This document shows positions 19,286 to 37,518 of a DNA stretch of 64,000 nt, one piece after another (the first letter of the stretch is position 1; every line of letters begins with the position of its first letter). The translations under genes and the position numbers were made by a program. The DNA lies in contig JBQNBN010000003.1 in the NCBI GenBank assembly GCA_052169915.1, positions 3,441 to 67,440 on the forward strand, in the 5' to 3' direction. The stretch is from Treponema sp. GTDB lineage: Bacteria; Spirochaetota; Spirochaetia; Treponematales; Treponemataceae. Below the pieces are notes generated by a model. That model did not search any database and was not told the DNA's origin. It saw only the letters and a list, made by a program, of their open reading frames with translations.

Positions 19286-19291
19286 GTTATG

Positions 19292-19364
19292 AGCTGCCTG
19301 TAGGATTTGAACCCACGACCCCGAGATTACAAATCACGTGCTCTACCAACTGAGCTAAGGCAGC
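19292..19364 (-). tRNA. tRNA-Thr (UGU)
   Basis: Minus strand reads GCUGCCUUAGCUCAGUUGGUAGAGCACGUGAUUUGUAAUCUCGGGGUCGUGGGUUCAAAUCCUACAGGCAGCU. It folds as a cloverleaf with anticodon loop UUUGUAA and one U-U mismatch in the anticodon stem. Confidence 0.88.
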
Positions 19365-20999: not shown

Positions 21000-21011
21000 T
21001 TTTTCACCTTC

Positions 21012-21440: not shown

Positions 21441-21450
21441 CGAGTCATCC

Positions 21451-22254
21451 TTATCGAAGGGAATCAAGGAGTTTTTTCAAAAGCCGCATATCGTCTTCGC
21501 TCAAAGATTTGTCGGAGGACGAATGTTGAGGTTTTTCTTCCGCGTCAAAATCGAGCGTAGGCGTTAAAGTCGGCTTGTCTCCTGAGCGGAGCGCGTCGTT
21601 TAAGACGGGCGCGTATAATTCCTGCGCGCGGAGATAGAGTTTGTAGTCAGGCACGACGGCGGATGCAGCGTAAAACGATGTAAAGAGGAGCGCGGGGTAT
21701 TTTTTTGCGATGCCCAACGCATCCAAAAGTTTTGCAGACGCGTCCACGTCCTTTCGTAAGGCAATATGCGCGTCTTTGTTGATGAGAAAATACGACGCGG
21801 CAAGAGCAGCGGCTTCTTCCGCCGCAGAATGTATATATTTTTCAAGCGAGTCTTGGTCGGAGACGACTGCCGACTGGATAAGTTCCGGCAGAAAGTCCTG
21901 TATAATCGACACGGTGATTTTAAAATCGAATTTATACGAAAAGTCAGGCGAATCTTTAAAAGCGTTTTTCAAAATTTCAGCCGTCGGAAGTTCCCCTTCG
22001 ACCGTCTCGGAAAAGTCATACGGCTTTACCGAAAAGATTTTCAATTCCGCGTTTGTCGGAATCAAAAATTCCCAGTGCCACGAAAACTCGCCTGCTTTCG
22101 CGATTTTCGGCGAAACGCCGCCGGTTTTCGATACGACAACGCCGACCGTTCCCGCTTTGATTTTAAACTGCGTCCACCCGATAAAAAAAAGCGTTGACGC
22201 GAACGAAATCGCAATCACCGCGCACGCGATAAACGTTTTGAAAGCCTTTGCCAT
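21451..22254 (-). CDS. Membrane-anchored hypothetical protein
   Basis: 267-aa ORF with an N-terminal TM helix (FIACAVIAISFASTLFFIGW). There is a weak SPFH/band-7-like start (KAGTVGVVVSKTGG...KAGEFSWHWEF). Family is not secure. Confidence 0.5.
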   Translation of the reverse strand: MAKAFKTFIACAVIAISFASTLFFIGWTQFKIKAGTVGVVVSKTGGVSPKIAKAGEFSWHWEFLIPTNAELKIFSVKPYDFSETVEGELPTAEILKNAFKDSPDFSYKFDFKITVSIIQDFLPELIQSAVVSDQDSLEKYIHSAAEEAAALAASYFLINKDAHIALRKDVDASAKLLDALGIAKKYPALLFTSFYAASAVVPDYKLYLRAQELYAPVLNDALRSGDKPTLTPTLDFDAEEKPQHSSSDKSLSEDDMRLLKKLLDSLR

Positions 22255-22340
22255 AAAACCTCCCGCGCATAGTAGTCGATAAAAGCGATTGGAGCAAGAA
22301 GATTGATTTTTCGACTTGAAAAGCCTCTCAACCGACTGAG

Positions 22341-22832
22341 TTAACGCGTTTCCAAAATCAAATCGACAGTTTGAGCGCCCGCGGCGCGGATAAGGTCAGC
22401 CGGAGAAAGGATCAGTTGAACGCCGCGCGCCCCTGCCGAAATGCAGATTTTTTCGCATTCAAGCGCGCTTTTATCGATAAAGGTGCGGTATTTTTTGCGC
22501 ATTCCAAGCGGACTGCACCCGCCGCGCACATAGCCGGTAAGCGTAAGCAGTTCTTCTGGCTTTACGGGCGCAATGTCCGCCGCCCCCAAGAGAGTCCGCG
22601 CCTTTTTTACGTTGATTTCATGCGCCGCGCTCTGCAAAAACACGCACACTTCCTTTGTGTCGGTGCGCATGACGACGGTTTTAAAGACGCTTCCTGCATC
22701 AAGCCCCAGTTTTTCCGCCAATTTTTCCGCCGCACCCCGTTCAAGATAATGCTCCCCGTCATCGTCGTACATCCTCGTCTCATACGGAATTTTCATCGCG
22801 TCTAAAATCCGCATTGCGTTTGTCTTTTTCAT
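22341..22832 (-). CDS. ybaK: Cys-tRNA(Pro)/Cys-tRNA(Cys) deacylase YbaK
   Basis: 163 aa, collinear with E. coli YbaK (TNAMRILD..., GYVRGGCSPLGMRKKYRTFID, ISAGARG). Confidence 0.85.
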   Translation of the reverse strand: MKKTNAMRILDAMKIPYETRMYDDDGEHYLERGAAEKLAEKLGLDAGSVFKTVVMRTDTKEVCVFLQSAAHEINVKKARTLLGAADIAPVKPEELLTLTGYVRGGCSPLGMRKKYRTFIDKSALECEKICISAGARGVQLILSPADLIRAAGAQTVDLILETR

Positions 22833-22864
22833 ATCAGTATCCTCGACTGTACAAAATGCATGTT

Positions 22865-22957
22865 GGGCGGCAGAGAACCTGCGGCCGGCAGAAAATAAAG
22901 TTTGACAGATTTAACGGTATTCCGGCCGCACACGTTTTGCCTTTAGGTAAAACGTGC
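22865..22957 (-). repeat. Dispersed two-hairpin intergenic repeat (copy)
   Basis: GGGCGGCAGAGAAC...GTTTGACAGATTT...CACGTTTTGCC-N-GGTAAAACGTG. This is the same architecture as the copies at 39.7, 39.8, 43.8, 46.2, 46.5, 47.9, 55.6 and 58.8 kb. Confidence 0.6.
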
Positions 22958-23072
22958 ATAAAACGGAGTGAAAACGGCGCGGCATAGTAATTTTGAGGAC
23001 GTCATCCCACCTTATCCTCCAATTACAAATTACGCGTTCCCAACTGCAAATCCCCCTCCCCAATTCACTTTG

Positions 23073-25445
23073 CTATTCCGTAATCGACTTCAAAAGCGAC
23101 TCCACTTCGGCGCGTTTAAACTCCGGCTGTTTTGCCTTTACTTCCTTTAAGCAGGTTTCCGCCCCCGCGTTGTCTTTGAGCGCGATGTACACTTTTGCAA
23201 GTTCGACATAACTTTCCCAGTCGGAAGGAGAGCGCTGCAGGACGTCCGTGAGCGCCGCCTTAGCATTTTCGTATTGCCCCGCGCCCGCAAAAGCCTTGGC
23301 AAGATTGCTCCGCGCCTCCGTGTTAGCGTTTTCAAGCGCAATCGCATTTTGAAAATACAAAATCGAGTTTTGATAGTCCTTTTTGGCAAGATAGGCGCTT
23401 CCAAGATTGTTGTTGACTTCAAAATTATTTTTTTCCTCCGCATACGCGGCCAGAAAGAAAGAGAGTGCGCCGTCGGCATTGGGCGGATTTTTCGCCATCT
23501 CCAAAACGCCGAGGTTGATTTTCGACTTTACATGATTCGGACTTAAAGCAAGCACTTCAGAATATTTTGTAAAAGCCTCCGCAGTCCTTCCGCTCTTATC
23601 CAAAAGCAGCGCGTAGTTATACATCACGTTCACTTGCAGCGCAGAATCTTTGAGCATTCCCCGTGCGTCGTACGCCGTTTTTGCAGAGGAAAGCGCCTCC
23701 GCCGTTTTATTTTGCGCGGCAAGGACTGCAGAAAGATTGTGGCTTGTCAACGGGTCGGCGCTTCCTGCAGGAAGGAGCGCAAGCGACTTTTTAAACGCGT
23801 TCTCCGAATCCGCATATTTTTCCGTCTGATAATAAAGCGTTCCCAATTCCTGCAAGGCGGTGCGGTTCTTTCCGTTGATTTTCAGCACGTTTTCGTACGC
23901 CGCTTCGCTTCCCGCATAATCCTTTTGCCGGAATAAGAGGCGTGCCTCTTCCAAATACGCCTTTTCGTAGCGCGGGTCGATGTCGCGCGCATTTCTGAAC
24001 GAAGAGAGCGCCGCCGCCTCATCGCCGAGTTTCAGATTGGTGAGCGCAAGGTTATAGCGCGCCGGAGCGAAGCGCGCGTTGAGTTCCGCCGTCTTTGCAA
24101 AAGACGACTTTGCATCCGCGTACTTTTTTGCCATAAACTGCGCGCGCCCCAAGTTGTAAAAATACACGTAATTTTTCTTGTCTTCCGCCGCCGCTTTTTG
24201 AAAAGATGCGCCCGCTTTTGCATAATTTCCTTTTCCGTACGCGTTCATGCCCAAAATAAAGTGCGAAGATGCGTCTTTGGGATTTGCGGCGACGGCTTTT
24301 TCCGCATATTCGGCAGCCTTCTCGCTCAAGATTTCCTTTTCCGAAGGAGAGGCAGCCTTCTGCGCCGAATCATAGAGAGCCGACGCGATTTCAGAATATT
24401 TTCCGGCGGAAAAAGAAGGCTCCCCTGCAGAAATCGGCAACCCTTTTTCCGCAGCGCGGAAGTTTTTAATCGCCTCCTCCGCGTTGCCGGACTTTAGAGC
24501 CGCCTTTCCCTTTTCAATACTGTCGTTGACCGCGTTCACTTCGTTTTTCACATTCGCATTCCGACGGGCAAGTTCCTGTTCCGCTTCTTTCCGCGCCGTC
24601 TCTTCTTTTTTCCGACCCGCTTCAATCGCCCGCTGCTGAGCCGCCTCTTCCTCCCGCTGACTTTGAGACTTTCCGTCCGCATTCCCCGCGCCGTTTTGCT
24701 TGCCGCTGCCGCCGTCCGCGTTCTTTTTTGCGTCCGCAGAAGAGCCGTCGTTTCCTTGACGGGCAATCGCACCCCGCCGTCCGTCGGCAGTTGAAGAGGA
24801 TTGCGCATTCCCGTTTCGACTGGAAGAAGCGCCGTTTCCGCTGTCATTTTTGTTGTTCGAACGATTTTGACCGCTCCGCTGTCCGCCGCTTTCCGCCTCG
24901 TCTAAAAGGTCTCCCCTTCCCCGCCGCGTAAGTCCGCTTGACTGAGAGCCGTCTTGCCCCTGTCTTCCAGTGCCGGCAGTCCCGCCGCCGTTTTCAGTCC
25001 CGTCGCTTTGGCCGTTTCCGCCGGAGACTTGAGCGTTTCCAGTCCGCCCGTATGCGCCGCCCCTGCCGGAAGTTTCGTCCGCGTCCGCACTGCCGTCGGA
25101 AGAAATTCCGTCCGCACCGCTCCCCCGCCCTTTCGCTGCAAGGATTTGCTCCATGAGCGCGCGCGCTTCTTCGTCGTTCCGATTTTGAATTAAAAGTTCG
25201 TCAAGTTTATCGAGCGCGCGGTCGTATTGAGCGCGTTCCATGTACATTTTTGCAAGTTCAAGCGTGTTGCGCCGCGCCTTTGCCGTCTGATCCCCCGCTT
25301 GAGCCTTGCACGTCCGCACGCCGAACAAGAGAATTAAAGCCGCCGCCGTCCCTCCGGCAACGCCTGCGATCGCCTTCGCCCGTTTTTTTGCGGAACGCTT
25401 GTTTGCGCCGCCTGAAACCGTATTAAAATCGTCCGAATTGTTCAT
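23073..25445 (-). CDS. TPR repeat protein with Gly/Ser/Asn/Gln-rich low-complexity insert
   Basis: 790 aa with an N-terminal TM helix and a ~170-aa low-complexity segment. More than 10 TPR-like repeats follow (e.g. AHFILGMNAYGKGNYAKAGASFQKAAAED). Confidence 0.8.
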   Translation of the reverse strand: MNNSDDFNTVSGGANKRSAKKRAKAIAGVAGGTAAALILLFGVRTCKAQAGDQTAKARRNTLELAKMYMERAQYDRALDKLDELLIQNRNDEEARALMEQILAAKGRGSGADGISSDGSADADETSGRGGAYGRTGNAQVSGGNGQSDGTENGGGTAGTGRQGQDGSQSSGLTRRGRGDLLDEAESGGQRSGQNRSNNKNDSGNGASSSRNGNAQSSSTADGRRGAIARQGNDGSSADAKKNADGGSGKQNGAGNADGKSQSQREEEAAQQRAIEAGRKKEETARKEAEQELARRNANVKNEVNAVNDSIEKGKAALKSGNAEEAIKNFRAAEKGLPISAGEPSFSAGKYSEIASALYDSAQKAASPSEKEILSEKAAEYAEKAVAANPKDASSHFILGMNAYGKGNYAKAGASFQKAAAEDKKNYVYFYNLGRAQFMAKKYADAKSSFAKTAELNARFAPARYNLALTNLKLGDEAAALSSFRNARDIDPRYEKAYLEEARLLFRQKDYAGSEAAYENVLKINGKNRTALQELGTLYYQTEKYADSENAFKKSLALLPAGSADPLTSHNLSAVLAAQNKTAEALSSAKTAYDARGMLKDSALQVNVMYNYALLLDKSGRTAEAFTKYSEVLALSPNHVKSKINLGVLEMAKNPPNADGALSFFLAAYAEEKNNFEVNNNLGSAYLAKKDYQNSILYFQNAIALENANTEARSNLAKAFAGAGQYENAKAALTDVLQRSPSDWESYVELAKVYIALKDNAGAETCLKEVKAKQPEFKRAEVESLLKSITE

Positions 25446-25470
25446 ATATCCCTCTGTTTAATTTCAAATC

Positions 25471-27891
25471 CTACTCAAGTTCCGGCTCGCGTTCGTAGTC
25501 GATGATTTCTTCCGCGCCTGCCGACATGTTCGTCGTGTCTCCGCGCTTGAGCGAGCGCACAACGTCTTCGCGGAATTTCCGCCTCCGCGCTTCATTTGCC
25601 TGCGCCGCTCCCGACGGAGAGTTCCCCGTCTGTCGACTGGAATCTGAGCCGTCCGCACGTCCGTTCGCCGTTCCCGACGGCTTTTGCGCGCCGGAAGAAG
25701 ATCGGGCGTTGTCCGCCCCGCCGTTTGCCTGCCGTCCCGTCTGCGCATTCTTCGGCGCGGCATTTTTGTCTTGCGCGCCGCCGTTTTTGCCGCGCGCCGT
25801 ATCGTTTGCGTTCTTTGCGCCGGAGGAGTTTTGATCCGCGCCTGCCGCAGCATTTTGTGAAGCGCGGTTCTGCGCGCCGCCCGCCTTTGCGCCGTTATTT
25901 GCATTGGGGTTTGAAGATGCGGAATTGCCGCTTGCCGCTCCGTTTGTCCGCGAGTTTTCCGCGCTTTGAGGACGACTGCCTGCCGCGCTGTCCGCATTTT
26001 GAGTTTTTCCTGACGCGGCTTCTGCCGTTTTGTCCGTGCTTTGCCGTCCCGTCCTATTGTTTGAAGCGGCTTTATTTCCCTGCGCTCCGTTTCCTTCCGC
26101 GCTTGAGGAATTGCCGTTTTCGCCGCCGTCTTTCTGCGCGTTCTGTCCGCCGTTCTTTGCCGCCGCGTCAGAGTTTTTTCCGTCCGCAGGATTACGCCCG
26201 CTGCCTGCCGCCGCATTATCCTTCCGATTTGCGTCCGACGCTCCGGAGCCGTTTTGTCCGCTGCCGCCGCGTCCGTCATTTTCTTTCGAGGATTGCGCTC
26301 CTTGCGAATTTTTATTTTGCGCATCGCGGCTGCTTTCCGCTCCGCCGGACTTTTTCGCGTCGTCCGCCGCGTTATTGTTACGCTGTCCGTTTTTTTGCTC
26401 CGCTCCGTTTTGTCCGTTTCGCGCGGAAGACGACTGTCCGTTATCCTTTGTATTTGCCGCGGCGTTCGAGCCATCGTCTGCGGTTCCCGTATCGCGAGAG
26501 GCGTCCGCATTACGCCCATCCCCAACTGCCTGCGTATTTTGTCCGTCTCCCGCGCTGCGATTGGAAGAGGCGTTGCTTTCGGCGGATTGTTTTTTCGCTT
26601 GCGCATTCGCGTCTTGTCCGCCGTTTTGTGTTCCGTCTGCGGAACGGACTTTGCCGTCCGCCGTATCGCCCGCTTGAGGATCGCCGCTCGCATTTTGTGT
26701 ACGCCCGTTTGCGCCTTCGTTGCCGGCGGACGAGGAACGCCCCGCTTCGTCTGCGCTCCGTTCCGCTTGCGCATTTTGTGATGCGGACTCTCCGCCGCGC
26801 ATATCGCCGGCATTCATTGACTCGGCATTTTCCGTTTGACTGCGCGCCGTATCGTTTGCGTTCCTTGAACTGGAAGATTTTTGTTCCGATTCGGCAGCGC
26901 CCGCGCGTCCTGTCTGCGCGTATTCGTTTTGTGAGCCGCTGCTTTGTGCGTCCGCATTACGGCCGCCGCCCGCCGCAACTCCGTTGCCGTTTGCCGCGCC
27001 GTCGTTTTCTGTAATACCGTTCCGGTTATTCCCGTTGCCGGAATTTCCGCTTTGCGCGGTATTGGGGGCTCCGTTAAAGCCGCCCGCGCCGCCATTGTTT
27101 CCGGCAGTCCCGTTTCCGTCCGATTGGGTATTCTGCATTCCGCTGCGTTCTTCTCCGGAAGCGTTTGCAAGTCCGCCTGCGGAAGTTCCGCCCGCTCCTT
27201 GCCCGCCGTTCATGCCGACGCCGCTTCCGTCCGCTCCGTTTTGCATTCCGGCGGCATCGCGTACGACGGAGGCCGCTCCGTACCCCGCGGCAATTTTCAT
27301 CAGCGCTTCTTCTATGCGCCGGTTTTCTTCCGCCGTCTGACGCTGGGATTCGGCATAGCGCGCCTCATCTTCCGCTTTTTTGCGCAAGTCTTCAGTCAAA
27401 TAAGAAAGAAGACGCCGAATGTTATCCGCCTGCTCATCGTCGGGTTCAAGTTCAAGAAAACGGCGGTAGTCGGCTTCGGCATCCTTGTATTTTTGCGTCA
27501 TAATGCGCGTGTTCGCGCGGTTCAAAATCGCTTGGGAAAAGTCCGGACGCGCCGCAATCGCAAGCGAAAAACAATTTTCCGCTTTTATGTAGTCGCCCCG
27601 CGTGTAAGCGACGTTGCCTTCATTAAAAGCAATCTGCCTGCGATTTGAAATAGGATTTTTCATACCGCGCTCAAAAGCGTCCATCGCCCGAGCATAGTCG
27701 CCGAGTTGAAAGTACGAAAGTCCCAAAATATTGAAGGTATTGGATTCAACGCGCCCCTCGGCAATTTCTTTTTCAAGAACGGGAGCCGCCTGCTCGGGAT
27801 GATTTTCATTGAAAAGACGCTCGCCTTCGCTTTCGGCATACGCGCCGGACGCCGCTAAAACTGCGGCAAACAAAAAAAACAGTTTTTTCAT
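25471..27891 (-). CDS. Secreted TPR protein with ~560-aa low-complexity region
   Basis: 806 aa with a signal peptide (MKKLFFLFAAVLAASGAYA) and N-terminal TPRs. A very long G/N/A/S/Q/D-rich tract follows, and several overlapping frames stay open across it. Confidence 0.8.
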   Translation of the reverse strand: MKKLFFLFAAVLAASGAYAESEGERLFNENHPEQAAPVLEKEIAEGRVESNTFNILGLSYFQLGDYARAMDAFERGMKNPISNRRQIAFNEGNVAYTRGDYIKAENCFSLAIAARPDFSQAILNRANTRIMTQKYKDAEADYRRFLELEPDDEQADNIRRLLSYLTEDLRKKAEDEARYAESQRQTAEENRRIEEALMKIAAGYGAASVVRDAAGMQNGADGSGVGMNGGQGAGGTSAGGLANASGEERSGMQNTQSDGNGTAGNNGGAGGFNGAPNTAQSGNSGNGNNRNGITENDGAANGNGVAAGGGRNADAQSSGSQNEYAQTGRAGAAESEQKSSSSRNANDTARSQTENAESMNAGDMRGGESASQNAQAERSADEAGRSSSAGNEGANGRTQNASGDPQAGDTADGKVRSADGTQNGGQDANAQAKKQSAESNASSNRSAGDGQNTQAVGDGRNADASRDTGTADDGSNAAANTKDNGQSSSARNGQNGAEQKNGQRNNNAADDAKKSGGAESSRDAQNKNSQGAQSSKENDGRGGSGQNGSGASDANRKDNAAAGSGRNPADGKNSDAAAKNGGQNAQKDGGENGNSSSAEGNGAQGNKAASNNRTGRQSTDKTAEAASGKTQNADSAAGSRPQSAENSRTNGAASGNSASSNPNANNGAKAGGAQNRASQNAAAGADQNSSGAKNANDTARGKNGGAQDKNAAPKNAQTGRQANGGADNARSSSGAQKPSGTANGRADGSDSSRQTGNSPSGAAQANEARRRKFREDVVRSLKRGDTTNMSAGAEEIIDYEREPELE

Positions 27892-28059
27892 CAGGCTTCT
27901 GCCCTCTCATGGAAAAATATGTCGGGCAGCTCTAAAATCAGTTTTTTGGAGATTCCCGATACATGATTTTCGGCATATGGCAGAGAAAATCGGAACGGTC
28001 GGCGAATCTTTTTACCCCTTGCGCGTGCAAAGGAAAACAGAGCGACCGGAAAAGAGAGT

Positions 28060-29148
28060 TTAGACAGTCGATTGCGTTTTTTGAAAAAAATTGTTCAATA
28101 AAATTCCTGCCGCAACGCGCCCCGTCGTCCCGAGTTTTTTATAAATTTTGTGCGTGTAATTTTTTATCGTCTGCTCTTTGAGTTCCAGCTCCCACGCAAT
28201 TTCCTTGTTCGTCCGCCCGTCGGCAATCAAACGGCAGATTTTGACTTCAAGCGGAGAAAGAAAAAAAAGACTTTCAAGCGGAGGACTTTTTTGCTTAAAG
28301 TTACATTTCTTTCTTTTATATTGGAATGCAAAAAACGGCAATGCGAATGAAAGCGCGGGGACTAAAAACAAAGCGGGAAGCGAACAAAAAACAGTTTCCG
28401 CCGGAGAAAGAGTTAAAACGAGGAAAAGCGGAGAGTCTTGATTTTCGCGAAGAGTTTTTTCCGCAAACTTCGCGCGATTCGTCTTGCCCGCACCGACTGG
28501 ACAGACGCGTTTTCCGTCGTTTGAAGAAAACAAAAGTTTGCAGCGGCATTTTCCGTCGCGCAAAAATCGTTCGATATTCGGCATGTTGACCGCAAAGCAT
28601 AAGGCTCCGATTGCCCTGCCGTCTTCAAGATTTTTGATGAGCCTGACTACAAACGCGCCTTTTTCCGTCCCGAACCATACGGGGTTCCCGTTTGACGCGA
28701 TAATCCGCGCGATATAATCTTGCGAGCGGAGAACGCTTTTTGTTGAAAACGAAAGATTTTCGCGCATCGTCAACGCGGACTTTTTGCCGCCGCTCACGGG
28801 AAAGAAAAACGCGTCGCCGATAAAATCGTCGCTTCCGGCAAGACTTTCCAAATATTCGGAAAAAGGCGCGTTCCATTCGTTTATTTGATAGCGTTCCGCC
28901 GACTCCGCATAGCTTGAAAGCAAGCGGTTGAACGAAGGCGCGGCAAGCGCCTGAAAACTGTACGATTCGATTGCGCCGAGCCGGTAGGATAAAAGGAACG
29001 AAGCGCGCTCAAGGCAGCCGTTTTGCCGGGCGCGCAATGCCGTCCGCACGGTAAAAAAGAGCAGACAAAGCGCAAACGCCGTAAAAAACGCCGCCCGCCG
29101 CGCGCGAAAAAACAAATGCAGTCCGTTCAAGTGATGCCCCAAGCGCAT
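28060..29148 (-). CDS. LuxR-family transcriptional regulator with membrane-anchored N-terminal domain
   Basis: C-terminal LuxR/FixJ HTH (LSPLEVKICRLIADGRTNKEIAWELELKEQTIKNYTHKIYKKLG). The start is placed at MRLGHH... because the upstream part of the ORF-track ORF runs into repeat sequence. Confidence 0.7.
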   Translation of the reverse strand: MRLGHHLNGLHLFFRARRAAFFTAFALCLLFFTVRTALRARQNGCLERASFLLSYRLGAIESYSFQALAAPSFNRLLSSYAESAERYQINEWNAPFSEYLESLAGSDDFIGDAFFFPVSGGKKSALTMRENLSFSTKSVLRSQDYIARIIASNGNPVWFGTEKGAFVVRLIKNLEDGRAIGALCFAVNMPNIERFLRDGKCRCKLLFSSNDGKRVCPVGAGKTNRAKFAEKTLRENQDSPLFLVLTLSPAETVFCSLPALFLVPALSFALPFFAFQYKRKKCNFKQKSPPLESLFFLSPLEVKICRLIADGRTNKEIAWELELKEQTIKNYTHKIYKKLGTTGRVAAGILLNNFFQKTQSTV

Positions 29149-29251
29149 GGGCGCATAATATCGATTTTTTTTCGCGGACGCTATGGGGGGATTGTTTAAT
29201 GAGGAGGTGGGAATGTGGGATGCGGAATTCCCAATTAAGCATTCCGAATGA

Positions 29252-29506
29252 AAAACAATTCCCTTCACGCAGCGTTCGCTTCGCGTCTTCATAGCCGAGG
29301 CGGATTAAATGCCGCATTCGTCCTGAAGAAAAGTTTAGAGCGCCGAGTTTCCCGAGCGGCTCGGACGGGCGGACGATGACCACGCGCATTTGAGGCGGCG
29401 GGGACAGTTTTAATTCGTCGTTCGGCAAAAGGGGGACTGCGATGACGTGCGTGCAGCCGACACGCGCTTTGCGGAACAGCAGATCATGCCAAAAAGCGTA
29501 TGTCAG
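29252..29506 (-). pseudogene. 3' remnant of a patatin-like phospholipase gene
   Basis: Open frame ...HDLLFRKARVGCTHVIAVPLLPNDELKLSPPPQMRVVIVRPSEPLGKLGALNFSSGRMRHLIRLGYEDAKRTLREGNCF matches the C-terminus of the intact patatin at 47967-48782. The last ~150 nt are ~85-90% identical by eye. There is no N-terminal catalytic part, and a TAG lies immediately upstream. Confidence 0.65.
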
Positions 29507-29842
29507 CTAGTAAAAATGCCGCCGTACTCCTTGTAAAGTATTTCGTCCGTCCGATATCGTCAATGTATTTCCGACCACCGTAAACGTGAAAAGAGTACCG
29601 CCGGTTCTTTGAACTGTCGCCATATTGCCGGAGCGTGTGTAAGGCTTCGGAGAATCGGGGTCTTGCTGCCACTTACCTATGCTGCTTTTGCTGTATAATG
29701 TTACGGTTGATGAATCAAATACGGCTTTAAAAAGTCCGTCATTTGCTTCCCACGTGCCGATAAACGGATTTGTCGCGATATTTCCGCCGCCGCCCTTATC
29801 GGAATTGGCGTCCTGTTTACTGTCGGCGATAAACGCCGCCTT
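29507..29842 (-). pseudogene. 5'-truncated lipoprotein-like gene fragment
   Basis: A 111-codon open frame (..FIADSKQDANSDKGGGGNIATNPFIGTWEANDGLFKAVFDSSTVTLYSK...) is bounded by TAA upstream. It has no start codon near its 5' end, and its TAG stop is in frame with the patatin remnant. Confidence 0.35.
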
Positions 29843-29861: not shown

Positions 29862-30089
29862 TTATTGCAATACGTGGTTACCGGTCGGTGAGTGCTGACA
29901 CCGTTGTCCGTAAGTCGTTGTCAGATGTCCGCCCATAGTGCGGGTTTCCCGTCCGCAATAAACGCAGTGAATACCATCTGATAGACATACGTGTTTTTTT
30001 GTAGGACTCGATTTACACTGTTGTCCGTAGTTTGTCGTTAAAGCGTTACCGAGCGCTTTTACTTCTCTTCCGCAATATCTGCATTGCAT
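29862..30089 (-). CDS. Small tandem-repeat Cys/His (zinc-binding-like) protein
   Basis: 75 aa made of two ~37-aa repeats, C-x-Y-C-G-R-E...L-T-T-x-Y-G-Q-x-C-x-x-S-P-T-x-x-H-V. An AGGAGGA RBS overlaps the stop of the upstream gene. Confidence 0.6.
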   Translation of the reverse strand: MQCRYCGREVKALGNALTTNYGQQCKSSPTKKHVCLSDGIHCVYCGRETRTMGGHLTTTYGQRCQHSPTGNHVLQ

Positions 30090-30098
30090 ATTTTCCTC

Positions 30099-30845
30099 CT
30101 ATTTCAGCACAATCATATCTTTATCGCCGAACCAAGCCTCTAAATCAGAAGCAAGCATACGCGGCTCATATATTTTGACTAAACCTTCCATAGATTGCGT
30201 TTGATGCTCGAATAAACACAATATCACTTGTTTCCCATGCTTGATGACGACAGCCGATAATTTGGGATTGCATCTTAACCGGTGCAGGCATTTTTCGTTT
30301 TTGAAAAAGTCAATAACCGTTTCCGCAGTCAATTCATCAACTTCTTCTACCGGTGCAATACCAAGCTTATGCATCTCATCGGATTTTTCAGACAGCGCAT
30401 TTATCAATACCGCTTCGTTTTCCTCACCGTCAGTCTTGAAAATGCCGCCGACTGCCGAAACAAACAGCGCTAACATTCCAGCTGCAACATTTACCTGAAA
30501 CGATTCGGATTCGCCGGTTTTACACCACAATGCAAAGTGCTCGCAATTATTGGTTACAAGGTTGTATTGCCGCTCTCCAATCCGAGAACGCGCCCGCGCA
30601 ACAGTTTCGTCAGGACTATACACGGTATGAGTATTCATAAATGCATCGCTGAACCGTCCGACAATAATTTCATTCTTCTGTGCAAATTGTTCAAGAGGCG
30701 CTTCGTGAATGCAAATATCATCGCCGAAATCTCCGTTTAATGCCGCGTAATGAATAACCGTCCCGTTTCCTGCATAAATACCGTAATATTTGTAAAGTAT
30801 GCGGTTTACAATCAAAATATCGCCGCGCCGTAGGGCAGTCCTCAT
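30099..30845 (-). CDS. LRAT/PLAAT-type NlpC-P60 superfamily protein + TM helix + shared C-terminal module
   Basis: 248 aa with GDILIVNR..YKYYGIYAGNGTVIHYA...NCEHFALWCKTG (permuted His...Cys order). A TM helix (VAAGMLALFVSAVGGIF) follows, and the tail ends FGDKDMIVLK. Confidence 0.8.
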   Translation of the reverse strand: MRTALRRGDILIVNRILYKYYGIYAGNGTVIHYAALNGDFGDDICIHEAPLEQFAQKNEIIVGRFSDAFMNTHTVYSPDETVARARSRIGERQYNLVTNNCEHFALWCKTGESESFQVNVAAGMLALFVSAVGGIFKTDGEENEAVLINALSEKSDEMHKLGIAPVEEVDELTAETVIDFFKNEKCLHRLRCNPKLSAVVIKHGKQVILCLFEHQTQSMEGLVKIYEPRMLASDLEAWFGDKDMIVLK

Positions 30846-30913
30846 AGTAAATCCTCAAATAGAAATGGATGCGGCAGCGGCCGATTATAGGCGGCATCTC
30901 GCACCCGCTTTTA

Positions 30914-31255
30914 TCAGTTTAAAACAATCATCGGTTTATCGCCGAACATAGTTTTTAAGTCTTCTGCCATCGACGTAAATCGATAAGAAACAAATTCTTC
31001 CTCCACGCGGTTTTCTTCTTTATTGAAGCAAGCCAACGTAATAATATTCTTAGTACTGCCTTTGACGGCAACCGCCAAAAGATTTGTGTTTTGCTTGAGT
31101 TTCTGCAAAACCTCGGGGCGTTTAAAAAACGTAATGACCGTTTCAGCGGAAAGAACATCAATGACGATAGGCTGCAATGCGCCTTTCGTCCCTTTGAAAA
31201 AAATTATTGCGCCGACGCTGATAATAACAATACCGATAATGATTGCGATATACAC
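30914..31255 (-). CDS. Small membrane protein with shared C-terminal module
   Basis: 113 aa with a GTG start and an AAGGAGG RBS. It has an N-terminal TM helix (YIAIIIGIVIISVGAIIFF), and the tail ends FGDKPMIVLN. Confidence 0.65.
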   Translation of the reverse strand: MYIAIIIGIVIISVGAIIFFKGTKGALQPIVIDVLSAETVITFFKRPEVLQKLKQNTNLLAVAVKGSTKNIITLACFNKEENRVEEEFVSYRFTSMAEDLKTMFGDKPMIVLN

Positions 31256-31265
31256 ATATACCTCC

Positions 31266-31604
31266 TTAGGTCAAAACAATCATCGCTTTATCGCCGAAAT
31301 TCTGACGGGTTTCGGCATCAAGCTCTTCCGCCTCAATACCTTGCGCGTCTTCTTCCATATCAACGACTTCGCCGGTTGCTTTATTAAAAAGACAGTTAAT
31401 CGTATTAAAATTTCCGTTATCGAGATTGTCTTTTACTACAGCAGCAATTATGTCCTTATTCTGTTGTAATTTCCGCAGCCGGTTCGGATCTTTAAAAAAG
31501 CTTACAATGTGAGTAAAAAATTGCAGCACCTTATGAAAAATATGCTTTATATAATTCCATATCCCTCGTACGATTTTGACAATCGCATCTATAACAAATC
31601 CCAT
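31266..31604 (-). CDS. Small protein (amphipathic N-helix) with shared C-terminal module
   Basis: 112 aa with a GAGGAG RBS inside the stop region of the upstream gene. The tail ends FGDKAMIVLT. Confidence 0.65.
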   Translation of the reverse strand: MGFVIDAIVKIVRGIWNYIKHIFHKVLQFFTHIVSFFKDPNRLRKLQQNKDIIAAVVKDNLDNGNFNTINCLFNKATGEVVDMEEDAQGIEAEELDAETRQNFGDKAMIVLT

Positions 31605-31614
31605 TGTATTCTCC

Positions 31615-32151
31615 TCATTTTAAAAGCAGCATGTTTTTATCCGCTAATTGCGCTTTAAGGTCTGCATCAAGGGTCTTTGCATAAAAAATTTTATGCGCTT
31701 CCGAGCCGTCTAAAATCGGTTTATTGTCCTTATTAAGAAAGAATAAATTATATTCCTTTATTCCGTCCACACGCTGAGAATCATGATCCGTTTTTTTAGG
31801 AACTAAAAAACAAACTGCGCTATGGCTGTTTTGATTAAAATGCCGTTTACTCCACGCAATAAGCGACTCAAACGTAATAATCTCAACCGTTTCTTCTTCT
31901 ACATTCCATGCCATTGTGAGCAATGCACTGATGCCGCCCATCTCTTTGATAGCCGTTTGGTATTCTCCAACTTTATCAGAAAAGGGTTTCAGCATATCGA
32001 GCAAAATCTTCTTAAAGTTTTTTGCGACTTCATCGATGTTCAAGTCATCAATACCAGTTTTGCGAGTCGCTTTGCCGATGCTTTCTTTCGCTATCTTTTC
32101 CAGTTGCTCTTTTAGATTGAGTTCATCATCTACCGTGTCTTTTAAACTCAT
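31615..32151 (-). CDS. Helical-domain protein with divergent copy of shared C-terminal module
   Basis: 178 aa with an ATGA start/stop overlap with the AAA ATPase gene. The tail ends LADKNMLLLK. Confidence 0.65.
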   Translation of the reverse strand: MSLKDTVDDELNLKEQLEKIAKESIGKATRKTGIDDLNIDEVAKNFKKILLDMLKPFSDKVGEYQTAIKEMGGISALLTMAWNVEEETVEIITFESLIAWSKRHFNQNSHSAVCFLVPKKTDHDSQRVDGIKEYNLFFLNKDNKPILDGSEAHKIFYAKTLDADLKAQLADKNMLLLK

Positions 32152-33461
32152 TTTTGTTCCTCCTCCTGAGTTTTTTGTTGATCGGTTTCTTTTACTACAT
32201 TGTAGTTTTTTGTTTCGATATTCTGTTTTATGTCTGCGCTTAAGCTTTTTCTCCGTTCCTCCTTTTTGAGTTTTATCTCGTCCCGTTTATTTTTATCCTC
32301 TGTGAATACTGCAGTAAACAATTCCGGTGTAAGCTTTTGCTCCTCGGAAGTTGCGGCTTTAATGAGCGTATTCAACACAAGATTTTTTAATTCACGCGGT
32401 GCGAGCTCTTCAGATAAGTCGCCCAACGTATTCCAAAATTCCTCTCCCGCCTGATCTTTATCAAATGGAGCTTTTGAAGGAATATGCTTTTTGATTATTT
32501 CAATGCGTAGGTTTTTATCGGGCAGCCTAAATTGAATGTGCTTGAGTATTCTGCTTTCAAATGCTGAGTCATAATTTTCTTTTAAGTTAGTAGCAAAGAT
32601 CGTAATGACATCGTAGGTTTCAAGGAGAATAAGCATTTGGCTGCGCAGCGAGTTAATAGCTTGATCGGAACTGGATGCGACATTGGTAATCCGTTTACCT
32701 AAAAAAGAATCCGCTTCGTCAAAAAATAAGACAGCTCCCGTTTCTTTTGCTTTTTTAAAAGCGGCAACTAAATTCTTTGGAGCATCGCCGACAAATTTTG
32801 ATTCAATGTCGGAATAGTTCAGCGGTAAAAACGGCATTCCTAATTCTTTTACAATGGCATGAGCAGCCATTGTTTTACCGGTTCCCGGCGGTCCATAAAA
32901 GTTGACTACTGAACGAGCAACAGGGTCAATTTCGGAAAAGCCCCATTCGTTGTAAATTAAATCCCGCTTTTTAATCAGCGTGATAACACTGTTTAATTCC
33001 GCGGCAATTTCTACTGGCAGTATGAGCTGCGAAAGTGAATAACGCGGTGTAACCGGCTCTACGTTTAAACGTACTTCATCATCTTGCGGTTTTTCTTTTT
33101 TTTCATCCACAGTATGTTCCTTTTTCGGTTTCTTTTGCGGATCGCCTATAATCCGTATTGTGATGCGGTGTTTTTCCATTTCAGTACGGTATTTTTTTAC
33201 CGAACAGTCCGCCATTGCCATAAATACCGACCATTTAATGTCGGTATTACTACTTTTCTTGCTTTTATCGTACAGAATACATGCAAAATACGTGCTTTCA
33301 TCCCAATCAGGTTCTCCGTAGGAAAAAGTACATTCGACTGCCTCTATATCCCCGACAGCGCTTTCAAGTTTTTGCACATATTGTGTGTATAGTTCTTCTG
33401 AAAGAGCTTCGATAAAAGCAAAATCTTCTTTTTTATTACGATGATTAATAGTAAAGTTCAT
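32148..33461 (-). CDS. Classical-clade AAA ATPase with unrecognised N-terminal domain
   Basis: 437 aa with Walker A GPPGTGKT, Walker B LFFDEAD, sensor-1 FATN and the second region of homology (NYDSAFESRI). The ~190-aa N-domain and the Lys/Glu-rich tail are not recognised. Confidence 0.9.
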   Translation of the reverse strand: MNFTINHRNKKEDFAFIEALSEELYTQYVQKLESAVGDIEAVECTFSYGEPDWDESTYFACILYDKSKKSSNTDIKWSVFMAMADCSVKKYRTEMEKHRITIRIIGDPQKKPKKEHTVDEKKEKPQDDEVRLNVEPVTPRYSLSQLILPVEIAAELNSVITLIKKRDLIYNEWGFSEIDPVARSVVNFYGPPGTGKTMAAHAIVKELGMPFLPLNYSDIESKFVGDAPKNLVAAFKKAKETGAVLFFDEADSFLGKRITNVASSSDQAINSLRSQMLILLETYDVITIFATNLKENYDSAFESRILKHIQFRLPDKNLRIEIIKKHIPSKAPFDKDQAGEEFWNTLGDLSEELAPRELKNLVLNTLIKAATSEEQKLTPELFTAVFTEDKNKRDEIKLKKEERRKSLSADIKQNIETKNYNVVKETDQQKTQEEEQK

Positions 33462-33472
33462 GCAAGAATTCC

Positions 33473-34063
33473 TTATGCTATTAAAGAAATTTCTCTGCCC
33501 TCGTAGATTTCATTCTCATCCACTTCTTCTGCTGAAAATTCTACTTCATCTATAAGCCCTTCAGCATCATGTAAACCGACCTTCACCGTCTTATAACCGT
33601 CCTTAGTTTTCAAACATTTCAAAATTTTTGCGTTCAGCGCTTTTCTCTTTAGTTCCGCTTGTTTCTTTTTTAGTTCTTCTTTTAATTTTTTAAGGTCTAA
33701 GCGCTTAATAATCGCATATGCGACACCGGCAGCACCGGCGGCAATTCCCAATTTTACTAATTGAGAAAAGACCATTCCGACGACACCGACATCATCCAAT
33801 AATCCAGCAATCGGAATAATATCCGGTACTATATCAAGCGGACTGACAATATAAATTAACCCGCCGATAATAATGGCTTTCATGTATGCAGGAGTAGACG
33901 GCGAATTAAACGCTTTCCACATTGCTTGAATCTTGTTCCAAACGGCAGCAAGCGGACCTTTATTCATCGAATCAAGTTTCTTCGACACATTATCGATGTC
34001 AGCTTGGCTGGCATTTTTTCCCATTTTCTCTGCCATTGACTGGGCTTTTTCCTCATCAGTCAT
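33473..34063 (-). CDS. DUF1232 (YkvA-like) membrane protein with coiled coil and short C-terminal module-like tail
   Basis: SPLDIVPDIIPIAGLLDDVG is the DUF1232 hallmark. The start is chosen at MTDEEKAQ, which has an AAGGAG RBS, rather than at the upstream ORF-track start. Confidence 0.8.
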   Translation of the reverse strand: MTDEEKAQSMAEKMGKNASQADIDNVSKKLDSMNKGPLAAVWNKIQAMWKAFNSPSTPAYMKAIIIGGLIYIVSPLDIVPDIIPIAGLLDDVGVVGMVFSQLVKLGIAAGAAGVAYAIIKRLDLKKLKEELKKKQAELKRKALNAKILKCLKTKDGYKTVKVGLHDAEGLIDEVEFSAEEVDENEIYEGREISLIA

Positions 34064-34124
34064 AAAAACTCCTTGCCGCCGTGCGGCGAATGTTTTGTCC
34101 GTATGCGTTCCGCATCGCATTCGG

Positions 34125-34240
34125 TATTACAGTGAGAATTCCTGCCGAATTCCGCTTAAAACAACTGTATTGCCGTTAGTACAACTGTATATCAGTTGAT
34201 TTTCAATTGTAATACAGTTGTTTTTACGCTTAATACAGTG
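34125..34240. promoter_or_regulatory. Divergent promoter/operator region with repeated ACAACTGTAT / ATACAGTTGT motifs
   Basis: ACAACTGTAT occurs at 34161-34170 and 34181-34190, with its reverse complement at 34212-34221. A CAACTG-N5-CAGTTG palindrome lies at 34182-34198, and partial copies at 34125-34134 and 34231-34240. Confidence 0.45.
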
Positions 34241-34275
34241 ATTTAATTCGCACACAAAACAAGTACGCTTTGTCC

Positions 34276-34587
34276 ATGACGCGCATTCAAGAACTTTTTA
34301 TCGCAAATCTGCGTTTTTACCGGACGCAAAACGGCTTTTCCCAACTTTCGTTTTCCGAAGCAATCGACATCAGTCCGAATTATTTGAACGCAGTCGAAAA
34401 CGGAAAGAATTTTCCGTCGCTGGAAGTGCTGCAAAACATCACCGAGACGCTTAAAATCATGCCCTACCAACTTTTTTTAGAAATTCCCGTCATGCAAAAC
34501 GACTTTTCACCGGTGTCAAAGCAAACGTTAATCGAACTCAAACAAAAAATATGCGGATTGATTGATTCGGAATTGGAAAAAAGTTGA
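34276..34587 (+). CDS. XRE-family helix-turn-helix regulator
   Basis: Reads MTRIQELFIANLRFYRTQNGFSQLSFSEAIDISPNYLNAVENGKNFPSLEVLQNI, a Cro/C1-type HTH. It is divergent from the AAA operon. Confidence 0.8.
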   Translation: MTRIQELFIANLRFYRTQNGFSQLSFSEAIDISPNYLNAVENGKNFPSLEVLQNITETLKIMPYQLFLEIPVMQNDFSPVSKQTLIELKQKICGLIDSELEKS

Positions 34588-34686: not shown

Positions 34687-34760
34687 GCGCGACTAGCTCA
34701 GTTGGTTAGAGTACAAGCATGACACGCTTGGGGTCTCTGGTTCGATTCCAGAGTTGCGCA
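34687..34760 (+). tRNA. tRNA-Val (GAC)
   Basis: GCGCGACUAGCUCAGUUGGUUAGAGUACAAGCAUGACACGCUUGGGGUCUCUGGUUCGAUUCCAGAGUUGCGCA folds as a cloverleaf with anticodon loop AUGACAC. Confidence 0.92.
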
Positions 34761-34761
34761 C

Positions 34762-35182: not shown

Positions 35183-35226
35183 ACCCCTCATTTATTTTTT
35201 CCCGTCTTTTGTGTATTCTCACCGTC

Positions 35227-36171
35227 ATGCAGGAACAAAACACAATCATCGCGGACGGGAACACGTCTGGTGTAGTCGGCAGCGGAAAGAAAAATGCGCT
35301 TGTTGCGCTGCTCGGTCGTCCTTCCGCCGGAAAATCCACTTTTTTGAATACCGCGTGTCAGGAGCCGGTTTCCATTGTGTCGCCGATACCGCAGACGACG
35401 CGCAATGCGGTGCGCGGCATCGTCAACACGTCGTTCGGGCAGCTCGTTTTTGTCGACACGCCGGGCTATCACGACTCCGACAAAAAACTCAATCTCCGCC
35501 TCCGCGCCCTCACCGAAGACGCGCTTGAAGGCGCGGACGCCGTTCTTTACATCATGGATTCGACGCGCCCGGCAGGACAGGAAGAAATGCTGACGGCAAC
35601 TCTTGCTGCGCGTTACGAAAGTCGACTGGTTGCGGCAATCAACAAAATCGACGCGAAAGGAGCAGACGCACAAGGCGCGCGTTCGTTTTTAAGAAGCGTT
35701 TTTCCCGCTCTTTCCGACGATCGCATTTTGGAAATGTCCGCGCTCAAAGACGACGGCATAAACGAGGTTCTCAAAGCCTTGTATGCCCTTTCGCCGGAGC
35801 AGCCCCCGCTGTACGAAGAAGATTTATACACCGACCAGAGCATTGAGTTTCGGGCTGCGGAAGTTATCCGGGGGGAAGCGGTCAACCGCCTTTCCGACGA
35901 AATTCCGCACTGTCTCTACGTTAAAGTCGCCGATCTTGAAAAACGGAGCGAAACGAAATTGTGGGTACGCGCGTTTTTGTGCGTGGAAAGAGAAAGTCAA
36001 AAAGGAATTGCGATTGGAAAAAACGCCGCGATGATAAAGGAAATCCGCACAGCGGCAGAGCGCGCTCTTAACGGCATTTTCCCGTACAAGGTGCAGCTTG
36101 ACCTGCAGGTCAAAGTCGACAAAAACTGGCGGCAGCGCGATTCCGTCTTGAACAAAATTATTCCAAATTAA
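35227..36171 (+). CDS. era: GTPase Era
   Basis: G1 GRPSAGKST, G3 DTPG and G4 NKID, with a C-terminal KH domain (RAFLCVERESQKGIAIGKNAAMIKEI). The start is at MQEQ. Confidence 0.9.
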   Translation: MQEQNTIIADGNTSGVVGSGKKNALVALLGRPSAGKSTFLNTACQEPVSIVSPIPQTTRNAVRGIVNTSFGQLVFVDTPGYHDSDKKLNLRLRALTEDALEGADAVLYIMDSTRPAGQEEMLTATLAARYESRLVAAINKIDAKGADAQGARSFLRSVFPALSDDRILEMSALKDDGINEVLKALYALSPEQPPLYEEDLYTDQSIEFRAAEVIRGEAVNRLSDEIPHCLYVKVADLEKRSETKLWVRAFLCVERESQKGIAIGKNAAMIKEIRTAAERALNGIFPYKVQLDLQVKVDKNWRQRDSVLNKIIPN

Positions 36172-36252
36172 ACATTCCATAATTACCAATTCCAAATCAC
36201 CCCAATCCCCCATTCGATTGTATAAACGGCGCAATATGGCTATAATTATTGC

Positions 36253-37518
36253 ATGAAGTATGTCTTAATTGTTGATGCTTCTCCGACTTTTTTAGAGTTT
36301 CTGAAAGATAAGCTGGAAGAAGAGCAGATTGAAGTAACCGCGGTGCAGGGAAAAAGAGATGCGCTGACTAAGCTGATTTCCATTTTGCCTGACTTGATGA
36401 TTCTTGACATAAACGAAGAGGGAGATTTTATCGGACTTGTTGAGTTTCTTGAAAACGTAAGCAAAGATCCCAATGCCCGAAACGTTCCTATCATTGCAGC
36501 AGGTCCCATTCGGAGCAGAGATGAAATAACGATACTTGCCAAATACGGAATCGTTAAATATTTTGTCAAGCCGATAAAGTTCGACATATTTTTTGAATCG
36601 GTGGGGCACTTTTTACGTACCGCATTTTCAATGGACGTAACGCCGTGCGTTCTTGACCTGCACAAAAACGGCAATCTGATTTTTATTGAGATTGCGCAGG
36701 GCTTAAACCGTGAAAAAATCCAGCTGATGAAGTACAAAATCAGCGAGATGATAGAAAATGACGAAGCGGCTCCCAAAATAATTTTAATGTTGTCAAATCT
36801 TGAACTCACCTTTATCGACGGACTGAATATCGAGTTTTTACTGGACAATGTTCTTGCAAACCGCAAAATCCAGCCGAAAAACATTAAAATTCTTTCGCTC
36901 AGCACATTTGTAAAGGAATTGATAGCGGGGCACGAATTGTACAACGGCATTGAAGTCGTTTCAGACGTTTCCGATATTCTCAATTCCGTCGTTGACAGCA
37001 CAAAAACCTCGCACGTGCCGGATCTTATTTCCGACAATATTCTCGTTTCGGCGGAAGATGAAGCGGAAGAACAGTCTTCTATAGAAATGCGTTTTGCCTC
37101 CGACGTCTGCATTATCAATCAAAAACCGAAAGAAGAAAGGAAAGAGGAGCAAAAACCTGCCGTAGGATTGGTAGACGACGATTCGGTTGTAACGCGGCTT
37201 TTGACCGCAGCCTTTGAAACCGAAGGTTTTGACTGCCGCTCGTATCCGTCCGGCACGGAATTCCTTGCCGAATACAATAAGTATAAATACGACATTATCG
37301 TGCTCGATATTTTTATGCCGGGAATTTCCGGTTTTGATACGCTCAAGCGCCTTAAAACGCTGCAAGACTGTCCGCCTGTTATCGTCTATTCGCAGGCGGT
37401 TGACCGCGATATGATTACTCAGATTCTTTCGCTTGGAGCAAAGCAGTACATCGTAAAGCCGCAGAAGCCTGAAAATATCGTGCAAAAAGCGCTTGAAATT
37501 TTAAATGCAGGGCAATAA
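36253..37518 (+). CDS. Response regulator with two receiver domains (REC-REC)
   Basis: 421 aa with an N-terminal REC-like domain (ILIVDASP...DLMILDI). The C-terminal CheY-like REC reads VGLVDDDSVV...DIIVLDIFMPGISG...KQYIVKP. Confidence 0.8.
   Translation: MKYVLIVDASPTFLEFLKDKLEEEQIEVTAVQGKRDALTKLISILPDLMILDINEEGDFIGLVEFLENVSKDPNARNVPIIAAGPIRSRDEITILAKYGIVKYFVKPIKFDIFFESVGHFLRTAFSMDVTPCVLDLHKNGNLIFIEIAQGLNREKIQLMKYKISEMIENDEAAPKIILMLSNLELTFIDGLNIEFLLDNVLANRKIQPKNIKILSLSTFVKELIAGHELYNGIEVVSDVSDILNSVVDSTKTSHVPDLISDNILVSAEDEAEEQSSIEMRFASDVCIINQKPKEERKEEQKPAVGLVDDDSVVTRLLTAAFETEGFDCRSYPSGTEFLAEYNKYKYDIIVLDIFMPGISGFDTLKRLKTLQDCPPVIVYSQAVDRDMITQILSLGAKQYIVKPQKPENIVQKALEILNAGQ

Follow-up and report, generated by a model that had tools for sequence, protein, structure and literature searches.

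What kind of system is encoded by the seven minus-strand genes that run from 34063 down to 29862 in a 64,000-nucleotide stretch of Treponema sp. DNA (contig JBQNBN010000003.1; the whole stretch is called the window here)? An earlier note, made from the sequence alone, recognised an operon with an AAA+ ATPase at its centre and a C-terminal module common to several products, and could assign it to no named defence, toxin-antitoxin or secretion system. The open reading frames (ORFs) indeed lie at these coordinates, we agree that they form an ATPase-centred operon, and no description of such a cassette was present in PADLOC, Pfam, NCBIfam, PHROGs or the literature searched. Reading function from sequence comparison, we tentatively propose that we have here a working copy, under regulation, of a conserved cassette that has spread horizontally, and whose ATPase would remodel a membrane-bound assembly as part of an inducible response to membrane stress or phage; we hold this to be plausible, if somewhat short of probable. 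The assembly would consist of four kinds of subunit: M1, M2 and M3, which end in the shared module, and X, which ends in a separate, shorter domain. The seven genes are:

33473-34063, minus strand: g1, X-type subunit, DUF1232 head and C-terminal X domain
32148-33461, minus strand: g2, classical-clade AAA+ ATPase of 437 residues
31615-32151, minus strand: g3, M1 subunit, helical head and C-terminal module
31266-31604, minus strand: g4, M2 subunit, amphipathic N-terminal helix and module
30914-31255, minus strand: g5, M3 subunit with a GTG start, N-terminal transmembrane helix and module
30099-30845, minus strand: g6, accessory protein, LRAT/PLAAT-like NlpC/P60 head, hydrophobic segment and module
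29862-30089, minus strand: g7, accessory mini-protein with two CxxCG...C...P...H zinc-ribbon-like repeats

The proposal is carried first by the conservation of this neighbourhood. A scan of one genome per species with the clade-specific motifs FFDEADSF and NSLRSQ recovered 230 relatives among 185,579 species, of which the 80 best loci were kept (L numbers below denote loci). These 80 come from Treponema, Brachyspira, Helicobacter, Bacteroidales, Flavobacteriia, Clostridia and Bacillales, and further from cyanobacteria, Desulfovibrio, Chloroflexota, Parcubacteria, Lentisphaerae and Kiritimatiellae. Gene sets at the loci were derived from stop-to-stop and same-strand ORFs; family counts do not draw on single-linkage BLAST clustering, which failed to keep the AAA, M and X genes apart and put them all in a single cluster. 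Module ORFs were found at 72 of 90 loci in a first pass. When only well-flanked loci are considered (60 loci with at least 2.5 kb on both sides, module genes being counted within 4 kb), 51 have two or more module ORFs near the AAA gene, in more than eight phyla, and 41 have at least two module genes together with an X gene, a composition that the window fits with its AAA gene, four module genes and X. Three module genes plus one X is the modal arrangement (30 loci). Every module ORF lies on the strand of the AAA gene (210/210), reverse look-up from module proteins lands beside an AAA gene, and behind every AAA homologue examined, from 92% down to 46% identity, come three to five module genes, in differing chromosomal contexts. 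We define the cassette as an AAA gene of the FFDEADSF/NSLRSQ clade with at least two same-strand genes ending in the module and an adjoining gene for the X domain; its usual core has five parts, namely M1, M2, M3, X and a soluble classical AAA+ translocase. The earlier note had called for such a neighbourhood survey and would have given up its idea for a gene set found nowhere else; the set proved to be strongly conserved.

The shared module itself is supported as a genuine, unannotated domain. A profile hidden Markov model (HMM) built from the C-termini of g3-g6 matches exclusively these four proteins over the 64 kb (E 1.2e-32 for g3, 2.8e-40 for g4, 7.9e-36 for g5 and 9e-36 for g6). Four carriers, possibly five, had been counted earlier; the four stand, and the supposed fifth, g1, has the separate and shorter X domain. 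The module spans about 85 residues and is modelled on g3 by AlphaFold2 (AF2) as beta-alpha-beta-beta-beta-alpha-beta with a predicted local distance difference test score (pLDDT) of 81-95. It falls into no Pfam, NCBIfam, PADLOC or PHROG family and finds no match among PDB sequence profiles, and Foldseek searches of the module and of M1 against PDB and BFVD gave no match at E < 1e-3; the sequence and fold comparisons that had been suggested for the module thus lead to no characterised family. In a profile search of 1.84 billion representative proteins it was found in 295 clusters. All clusters listed are small proteins (69-250 residues), nearly every one of which has the module as its very end. 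Among the module proteins of the loci surveyed, it likewise reaches the C-terminus in 199 of 209.

What precedes the module is regular. Three types of module protein recur in a fixed order: M1 with a long, soluble, helical head, M2 with a short and strongly amphipathic N-terminus, and M3 with a transmembrane N-terminus. The order M1, M2, M3 is kept across loci and phyla, M1 coming first in the series, right after the AAA gene when the series lies downstream and at the far end when it lies upstream. In the window, g3 has a head of long helices (residues 1-80) before its module (81-178), g4 has a hydrophobic moment of 0.73 and no transmembrane segment, and the N-terminal helix of g5 reaches a 19-residue hydropathy of 2.91; none of the three has a Pfam match. 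The N-termini of all core subunits are membrane-directed, through a helical/amphipathic head in M1, an amphipathic helix in M2, a transmembrane helix in M3 and a transmembrane or DUF1232 head in X, and the hydropathy and amphipathicity analysis agrees with the earlier impression of mostly membrane-associated heads. Lysine and arginine around the transmembrane helices average 0.5 before and 2.7 after (n=130). This bias puts the C-terminal domains of M and X, by prediction, on the cytoplasmic side, together with the ATPase.

This regularity bears on a first alternative, close to the earlier idea that the module docks interchangeable heads. Here the module would tag exchangeable membrane-active effectors, such as pore-forming peptides and a phospholipase, to an AAA sensor or activator, as proposed for IetA, and the outcome would be abortive infection by membrane damage. 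The short amphipathic and transmembrane heads do resemble small membrane toxins, and control by XRE or WYL-type regulators would suit such a role. However, the heads are invariant: instead of alternatives, we find three fixed orthologous types in a fixed order, plus X, and the same three heads in the same order across phyla point to a pattern of subunits rather than of polymorphic effectors. LRAT is the sole recognisable head, and the sole enzymatic one, among the 26 longest module proteins, occurring in 5 of them. The best match of the ATPase in a defence library is IetA (PADLOC, E 8.7e-31), which also speaks for this alternative; the match is partial and of the kind that any AAA protein gives. 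Membership of IetAS was rejected, because the score is 86 bits against a cut-off of 510 and the six other operon products include no IetS subtilisin-like protease, indeed no protease or PADLOC match at all. Also in its favour is a variant locus, L009, which lies in a Fic/ResIII island and where the partners of the AAA gene are a single module protein and an FGE-sulfatase protein. With the state of the LRAT enzyme described below also set against it, we consider effector docking unlikely.

The X protein completes the set of membrane-directed subunits. In the window, g1 matches DUF1232 (E 1.7e-11) with 44.1 bits, above the Pfam gathering cut-off of 23, contains a hydrophobic stretch at about residues 60-125 and closes with an X domain of about 55 residues that ends at the C-terminus. 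An X gene adjoins the AAA gene in about 70 loci. Its head is usually transmembrane, DUF1232 being found in the window, L002 and L013, and the X domain reaches the C-terminus in 68 of 71 proteins. Because the similarity of X to the module is merely borderline (hhalign probability 39%, E 3e-4, collinear alignment), X is treated as a distinct domain that may be a distant relative of the module.

Is the ATPase equipped to act on such subunits? The AF2 model of g2 (pLDDT 82.8) shows an alpha/beta N-domain (residues 1-110) laid out as beta-alpha-beta-beta-alpha-alpha-beta, a disordered linker (114-130), the AAA core (Pfam AAA, E 3.3e-28) and a long C-terminal helix. By PDB profiles and Foldseek, the core is nearest to VAT/p97 D2, Afg2, Vps4/CdvC, Msp1 and Rpt. 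Since Walker A (GPPGTGKT), the Walker B DE, pore-loop residues K222/G225 (K-F-V-G), sensor-1 N292 and R304 are invariant in 91 homologues, g2 is indicated to be an active, substrate-threading enzyme. Its maximum 19-residue hydropathy is 1.48 and its N-domain is a confident soluble fold. An N-domain profile found no match in PDB sequences or Pfam. Homology between the module and the N-domain was rejected at the sequence level (hhalign probability 0.35%), so that docking of the module to the N-domain, one of the contacts that the earlier note wished to see modelled, stays a guess. At the other end of the protein, a conserved C-terminal tail (32148-32330; L...IK.NLe.kNY.V) weakly resembles the start of the X/M2 core (K.NL..GNYN.V), with E ~5e-5 against 91 tails and hhalign E-values of 2.5e-3 and 7.5e-3; we take this possible likeness to the X/M core as a lead and not as a finding. 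N-domains of the g2 type are tandemly duplicated in a cyanobacterial locus (L029, 7752-9500) and a Parcubacteria locus (L051, 2907-4628).

Taken together, the gene linkage, the constant set of subunit types, the cytoplasmic placing of their C-termini and a translocase that is intact suggest that the ATPase acts on a membrane-bound M/X assembly. In the mechanism that we propose, M1, M2, M3 and X would associate by way of the domains they share, forming a hetero-oligomer on the cytoplasmic face of the membrane. The ATPase would be recruited to it by its private N-domain, by its M/X-like C-terminal tail, or by both, and ATP-driven threading would assemble, disassemble or extract subunits, thereby switching a membrane-active state on or off. 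Module-tagged extras, here the LRAT/PLAAT-like lipid enzyme, could be brought to the same platform. An XRE repressor would hold the operon silent until a signal arrives, and the role would most likely be an inducible response to membrane stress or phage. The system appears to be of a known kind, a membrane-associated accessory system centred on an AAA+ protein, with partner domains that seem to be new.

The remaining genes of the operon look like additions to this core. The g6 protein comprises an LRAT head (residues 1-115; E 1.1e-24, 87.5 bits against a gathering threshold of 24.3), a hydrophobic segment at about 119-137, which is absent from some homologues, and the module (166-248); the LRAT-module architecture recurs in L001, L002, L013 and L019. 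C101 of its NCEHF motif is invariant in 10 of 10 aligned sequences. Position 20, which we take from PLAAT3 and LRAT to be the catalytic His that pairs with this Cys, is Tyr in the window (codon at 30786-30788, minus strand) and His in all 9 homologues; the second His is kept. The head would make a plausible phospholipase, in line with the effector-docking alternative, yet the window copy, which lacks this His, may be inactive or altered, which tells against that alternative here. The g7 mini-protein, with its duplicated Cys/His pattern, has merely weak zinc-finger matches in Pfam; duplicated g7-related mini-proteins are likewise encoded last in the operons of L014 and L010, a position taken by an analogous family in L069 and L024. 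Both products, like the DUF1232 and AAA proteins, have the domain content that had been read from the sequence before. Elsewhere, a gene for a DUF6140 protein of about 73 residues (Pfam E 2.5e-33) adjoins the cassette, on its strand, in 16 Bacteroidales loci (for example L033, 987-1208), usually as the first gene and downstream of the AAA gene in 3 loci, which gives a genomic context to this family of unknown function. Other sporadic additions are CxxCxxCC/YkgJ proteins and the FGE-sulfatase protein of L009. By their distribution, LRAT, DUF1232 and the zinc-ribbon protein are sporadic accessories and not part of the core.

The window copy is compact and intact. All seven frames are open, the ribosome-binding sites are well formed, and the start of g1 at 34063 is backed by homologues beginning MTDEQKAQ. 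The tight packing noted earlier at five of six junctions is borne out: g2 and g3 share a 4-nt ATGA overlap, and the gaps g1/g2, g3/g4, g4/g5 and g6/g7 measure 11, 10, 10 and 9 nt, with GGAG-type ribosome-binding sites that overlap the preceding stop (TAAGGA, TGAGGAG, TAAGGAGG and TAGGAGG). The sole long junction is the 68-nt gap between g5 and g6. This gap (30846-30913) holds a GC-rich stretch and a potential hairpin, which might be an internal attenuator before the accessory genes. The g5 protein is 100% identical to a hypothetical protein from a Treponema sp. metagenome-assembled genome at NCBI. The operon had seemed more AT-rich than its flanks by eye, and the computed GC content agrees, with 40.4% in the operon, 47.8% in the window, 53.0% in the left 10 kb and 48.3% in the right 10 kb; it is among the lowest-GC 4.2-kb stretches of the 64-kb window.

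Upstream, the operon faces a divergent regulator across a repeat-rich spacer, as had been described, and that regulator gene ends, as had also been estimated, about 100 bp from a tRNA gene:

34064-34269, 206 bp: divergent promoter/operator spacer with 4-5 ACAACTGTAT half-sites
34270-34587, plus strand: XRE/Cro-C1-type helix-turn-helix regulator (HTH_3, E 4.5e-10; likely start ATG 34276)
34687-34761, plus strand: tRNA-Val(GAC), called by ARAGORN, 100 bp beyond the XRE stop

The half-sites occur in both orientations, and the spacer repeats form four families (D1-D4) and the inverted pairs I1-I3; one inverted pair is perfect over 14 nt. An HTH_3 protein together with repeated and palindromic sites in a divergent promoter points to an XRE/Cro-C1 repressor with a putative operator, to which binding is predicted. 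Divergent XRE genes lie 0-500 bp from the cassette in at least 7 non-redundant loci, and in L002 and L003 the operon opens with a WYL regulator gene.

The earlier note had drawn attention to the tRNA gene and wanted its locus compared across strains. An integrative island at tRNA-Val is not supported: the operon is situated on the 5' side of the tRNA, a scan of ten flanking ORFs (19410-29840 and 35209-37518) turned up no integrase, and no att-like repeat was found, the only direct repeats being the DNA image of the module motif. The tRNA-Val is a neighbour, with no evidence that it belongs to the system. Outside its own record, the LuxR-type protein of the left flank finds relatives of at most 43% identity, bar one 65% match over 24% of the query, and the contigs retrieved with this protein show no synteny and end on the wrong side.

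These observations also weigh on the possibility that the operon is prophage or mobile-element cargo, such as a lysis or superinfection-exclusion cassette, or else a decaying remnant without function. Its low GC content would fit cargo, as would the PHROG matches of the AAA protein (phrog_3757, E 1.6e-53) and of the DUF1232 protein, and the His-to-Tyr change in g6 could mark decay. Neither integrase, att repeat nor phage structural gene lies nearby, however, and the seven intact frames with well-formed ribosome-binding sites speak against a remnant. Moreover, GenBank phages and PLSDB plasmids yielded only distant AAA-core matches, none of the module-linked clade, and among 35 viral loci from IMG/VR this clade appears at one, L091, a contig with an X gene, the AAA gene and a weak module match (E 1.3e-3) that is truncated where the contig stops. 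A phage or plasmid origin was rejected on these results, and the conservation of the core across phyla speaks against both cargo and remnant; we regard either as very improbable.

Does the cassette then serve the cell in ordinary times? A housekeeping machine for membrane remodelling or repair, like ESCRT-III/Vps4 or PspA, in which paralogous subunits polymerise and an ATPase recycles them with no role in conflict, would account for four paralogous small subunits with N-terminal membrane-binding elements beside a Vps4-like AAA core. It would also suit the dynamin-like GTPase genes that neighbour the cassette, in the same orientation, in four phyla. The pair found in L002 is a complete Eleos pair, LeoBC (E 3e-91) and LeoA (E 9e-90), placed directly upstream of X and AAA and on their strand. 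More distant dynamin-family genes lie 3' of the AAA gene, again on its strand, in L051 (4792-6870, Parcubacteria) and, as pairs, in L062 (12177-15473, Flexilinea) and L075 (7479-10882, Bacteroidaceae). The single-strand array of L002 (666-11378) reads WYL, a 145-residue gene, DUF1232, LeoBC, LeoA, DUF1232-X, AAA, M1, M2, M3 and LRAT-module.

Against a housekeeping role stand the sparse and patchy distribution (230 of 185,579 species), the atypical GC content of the window operon, the different genomic sites at which close relatives hold the cassette, and its XRE/WYL control. Its company is also of another sort: besides Eleos, the flanks include retron reverse transcriptases, ResIII and Fic genes, integrases and PDDEXK_9 proteins, and in L073 a retron-type reverse transcriptase (5017-6603; PADLOC RT-Protease_XI, E 5e-103) lies directly 3' of the AAA gene on the same strand. 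The cassette also contains neither an MIT domain nor an ESCRT-III or PspA fold. A purely housekeeping machine therefore seems doubtful to us. Patchy spread, atypical GC, varied sites, XRE/WYL control and Eleos, retron and restriction-type neighbours lead us to favour a conflict or stress role, for which the evidence is moderate.

Several observations sit uneasily with our proposal of an inducible, ATPase-driven membrane assembly. In Brachyspira the cassette occupies one conserved RecO/ferredoxin site (L005, L128 and L129; several contigs, not all of one sample), a pattern closer to stable inheritance than to that of a defence island, and one that fits housekeeping better. The same holds for the flanking genes, which are mostly ordinary, with 156 Pfam families among 125 flanking proteins and none dominant. 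The N-domain of the ATPase is unlike the module by hhalign, and no known fold matches either of them. The last element of the module is a beta-strand, beyond which there is no free tail, and this is awkward for threading that starts at the C-terminus. No protease is encoded in the operon, PADLOC holds no model for the small proteins, and the window LRAT copy is without its catalytic His. A second Brachyspira version of the cassette (L007 and L021) has a multi-pass membrane protein and lies beside a DinG-like helicase.

Other features of the window complete the picture. Downstream of g7, the putative gene remnants that the earlier note placed at 29252-29842 are two minus-strand ORF fragments (29009-29428 and ~29507-29840) that match no Pfam family; one of them has no start codon, and its sequence resembles the C-terminal portion of a lipoprotein. 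Further left (23073-27891, minus strand) lie two large tetratricopeptide-repeat (TPR) proteins of 790 and 806 residues, in a stretch of 56-60% GC with an AT skew down to -0.57, a compositional outlier opposite in direction to the operon. A tRNA-Tyr(GTA) and tRNA-Thr(TGT) pair at 19204-19364 (minus strand) is unrelated to the cassette.

Should our reading of an ATPase-remodelled M/X assembly hold, the unannotated module and X families, together with a dedicated clade of classical AAA+ proteins, would make up a new machine at the cytoplasmic membrane that spans phyla, and a new bacterial way of coupling an unfoldase to membrane-bound subunits. Given its links to Eleos dynamins, retrons and XRE/WYL regulators, the machine is a candidate member of the bacterial repertoire against phage or envelope stress. 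Its presence in cultured strains of Brachyspira, Helicobacter, Tenacibaculum, Capnocytophaga and Metabacillus renders the proposal directly testable.

How does the cassette compare with systems already described? With IetAS (Gao_Iet), which gives the best PADLOC/NCBIfam match of its ATPase (IetA/IteA), it shares the form of an accessory operon centred on a classical AAA protein; it differs in its score against NF042959 (86 bits vs 510) and in its partners, which are small membrane proteins. Msp1/ATAD1 ranks near the top when the AAA core is compared by structure (Foldseek E ~4e-15) and has in common with it an aromatic pore loop and, probably, single-pass membrane proteins as clients. The cassette ATPase has no transmembrane anchor, however, as its low maximum hydropathy indicates, and its putative clients are N-terminally anchored instead of tail-anchored, dedicated and co-encoded. 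The g6 protein resembles the PLAAT/H-RAS-like suppressor and LRAT proteins in having an NlpC/P60 domain of the LRAT family, which contains the NCEHF Cys, and behind this domain a hydrophobic membrane segment, but carries an extra C-terminal module tying it to the AAA cassette and a Tyr for the catalytic His. Eleos (LeoA/LeoBC) and the bacterial dynamin-like proteins likewise act at membranes and are physically linked to the cassette in L002, L051, L062 and L075, whereas the window has no dynamin gene and the cassette proteins are unrelated to dynamins.

The closest parallel is with Vps4/CdvC and ESCRT-III, where a soluble classical AAA+ protein likewise works beside small, N-terminally membrane-binding proteins with a shared C-terminal region. 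The AAA cores are similar (Vps4, E 1e-26; a CdvC profile match), with the Walker A/B motifs, aromatic pore loop and Arg finger of the classical clade all present in g2, and by this analogy the cassette ATPase would recycle a membrane-bound assembly. It is not a member of either group: with 72 bits it falls short of the CdvC equivalog threshold of 650, it has a private alpha/beta fold where Vps4 has the three-helix bundle of the MIT domain, and its partners are not ESCRT-III, Snf7 or PspA proteins, their conserved part being an alpha/beta domain without known relative. Membership thus fails for Vps4/ESCRT-III by the lack of an MIT domain and an ESCRT-III fold, as it does for Msp1 by the lack of an ATPase transmembrane anchor. 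A bolder and more speculative extension, which we put forward as unlikely on present evidence, is that the cassette is a functional analogue of ESCRT-III/Vps4 that is unrelated to ESCRT. Four paralogous subunits based on a new alpha/beta domain would then form a membrane assembly that an AAA+ enzyme builds or strips, serving inducible repair or sacrifice in the face of phage or envelope damage, and sometimes working with Eleos dynamins and module-tagged lipid enzymes.

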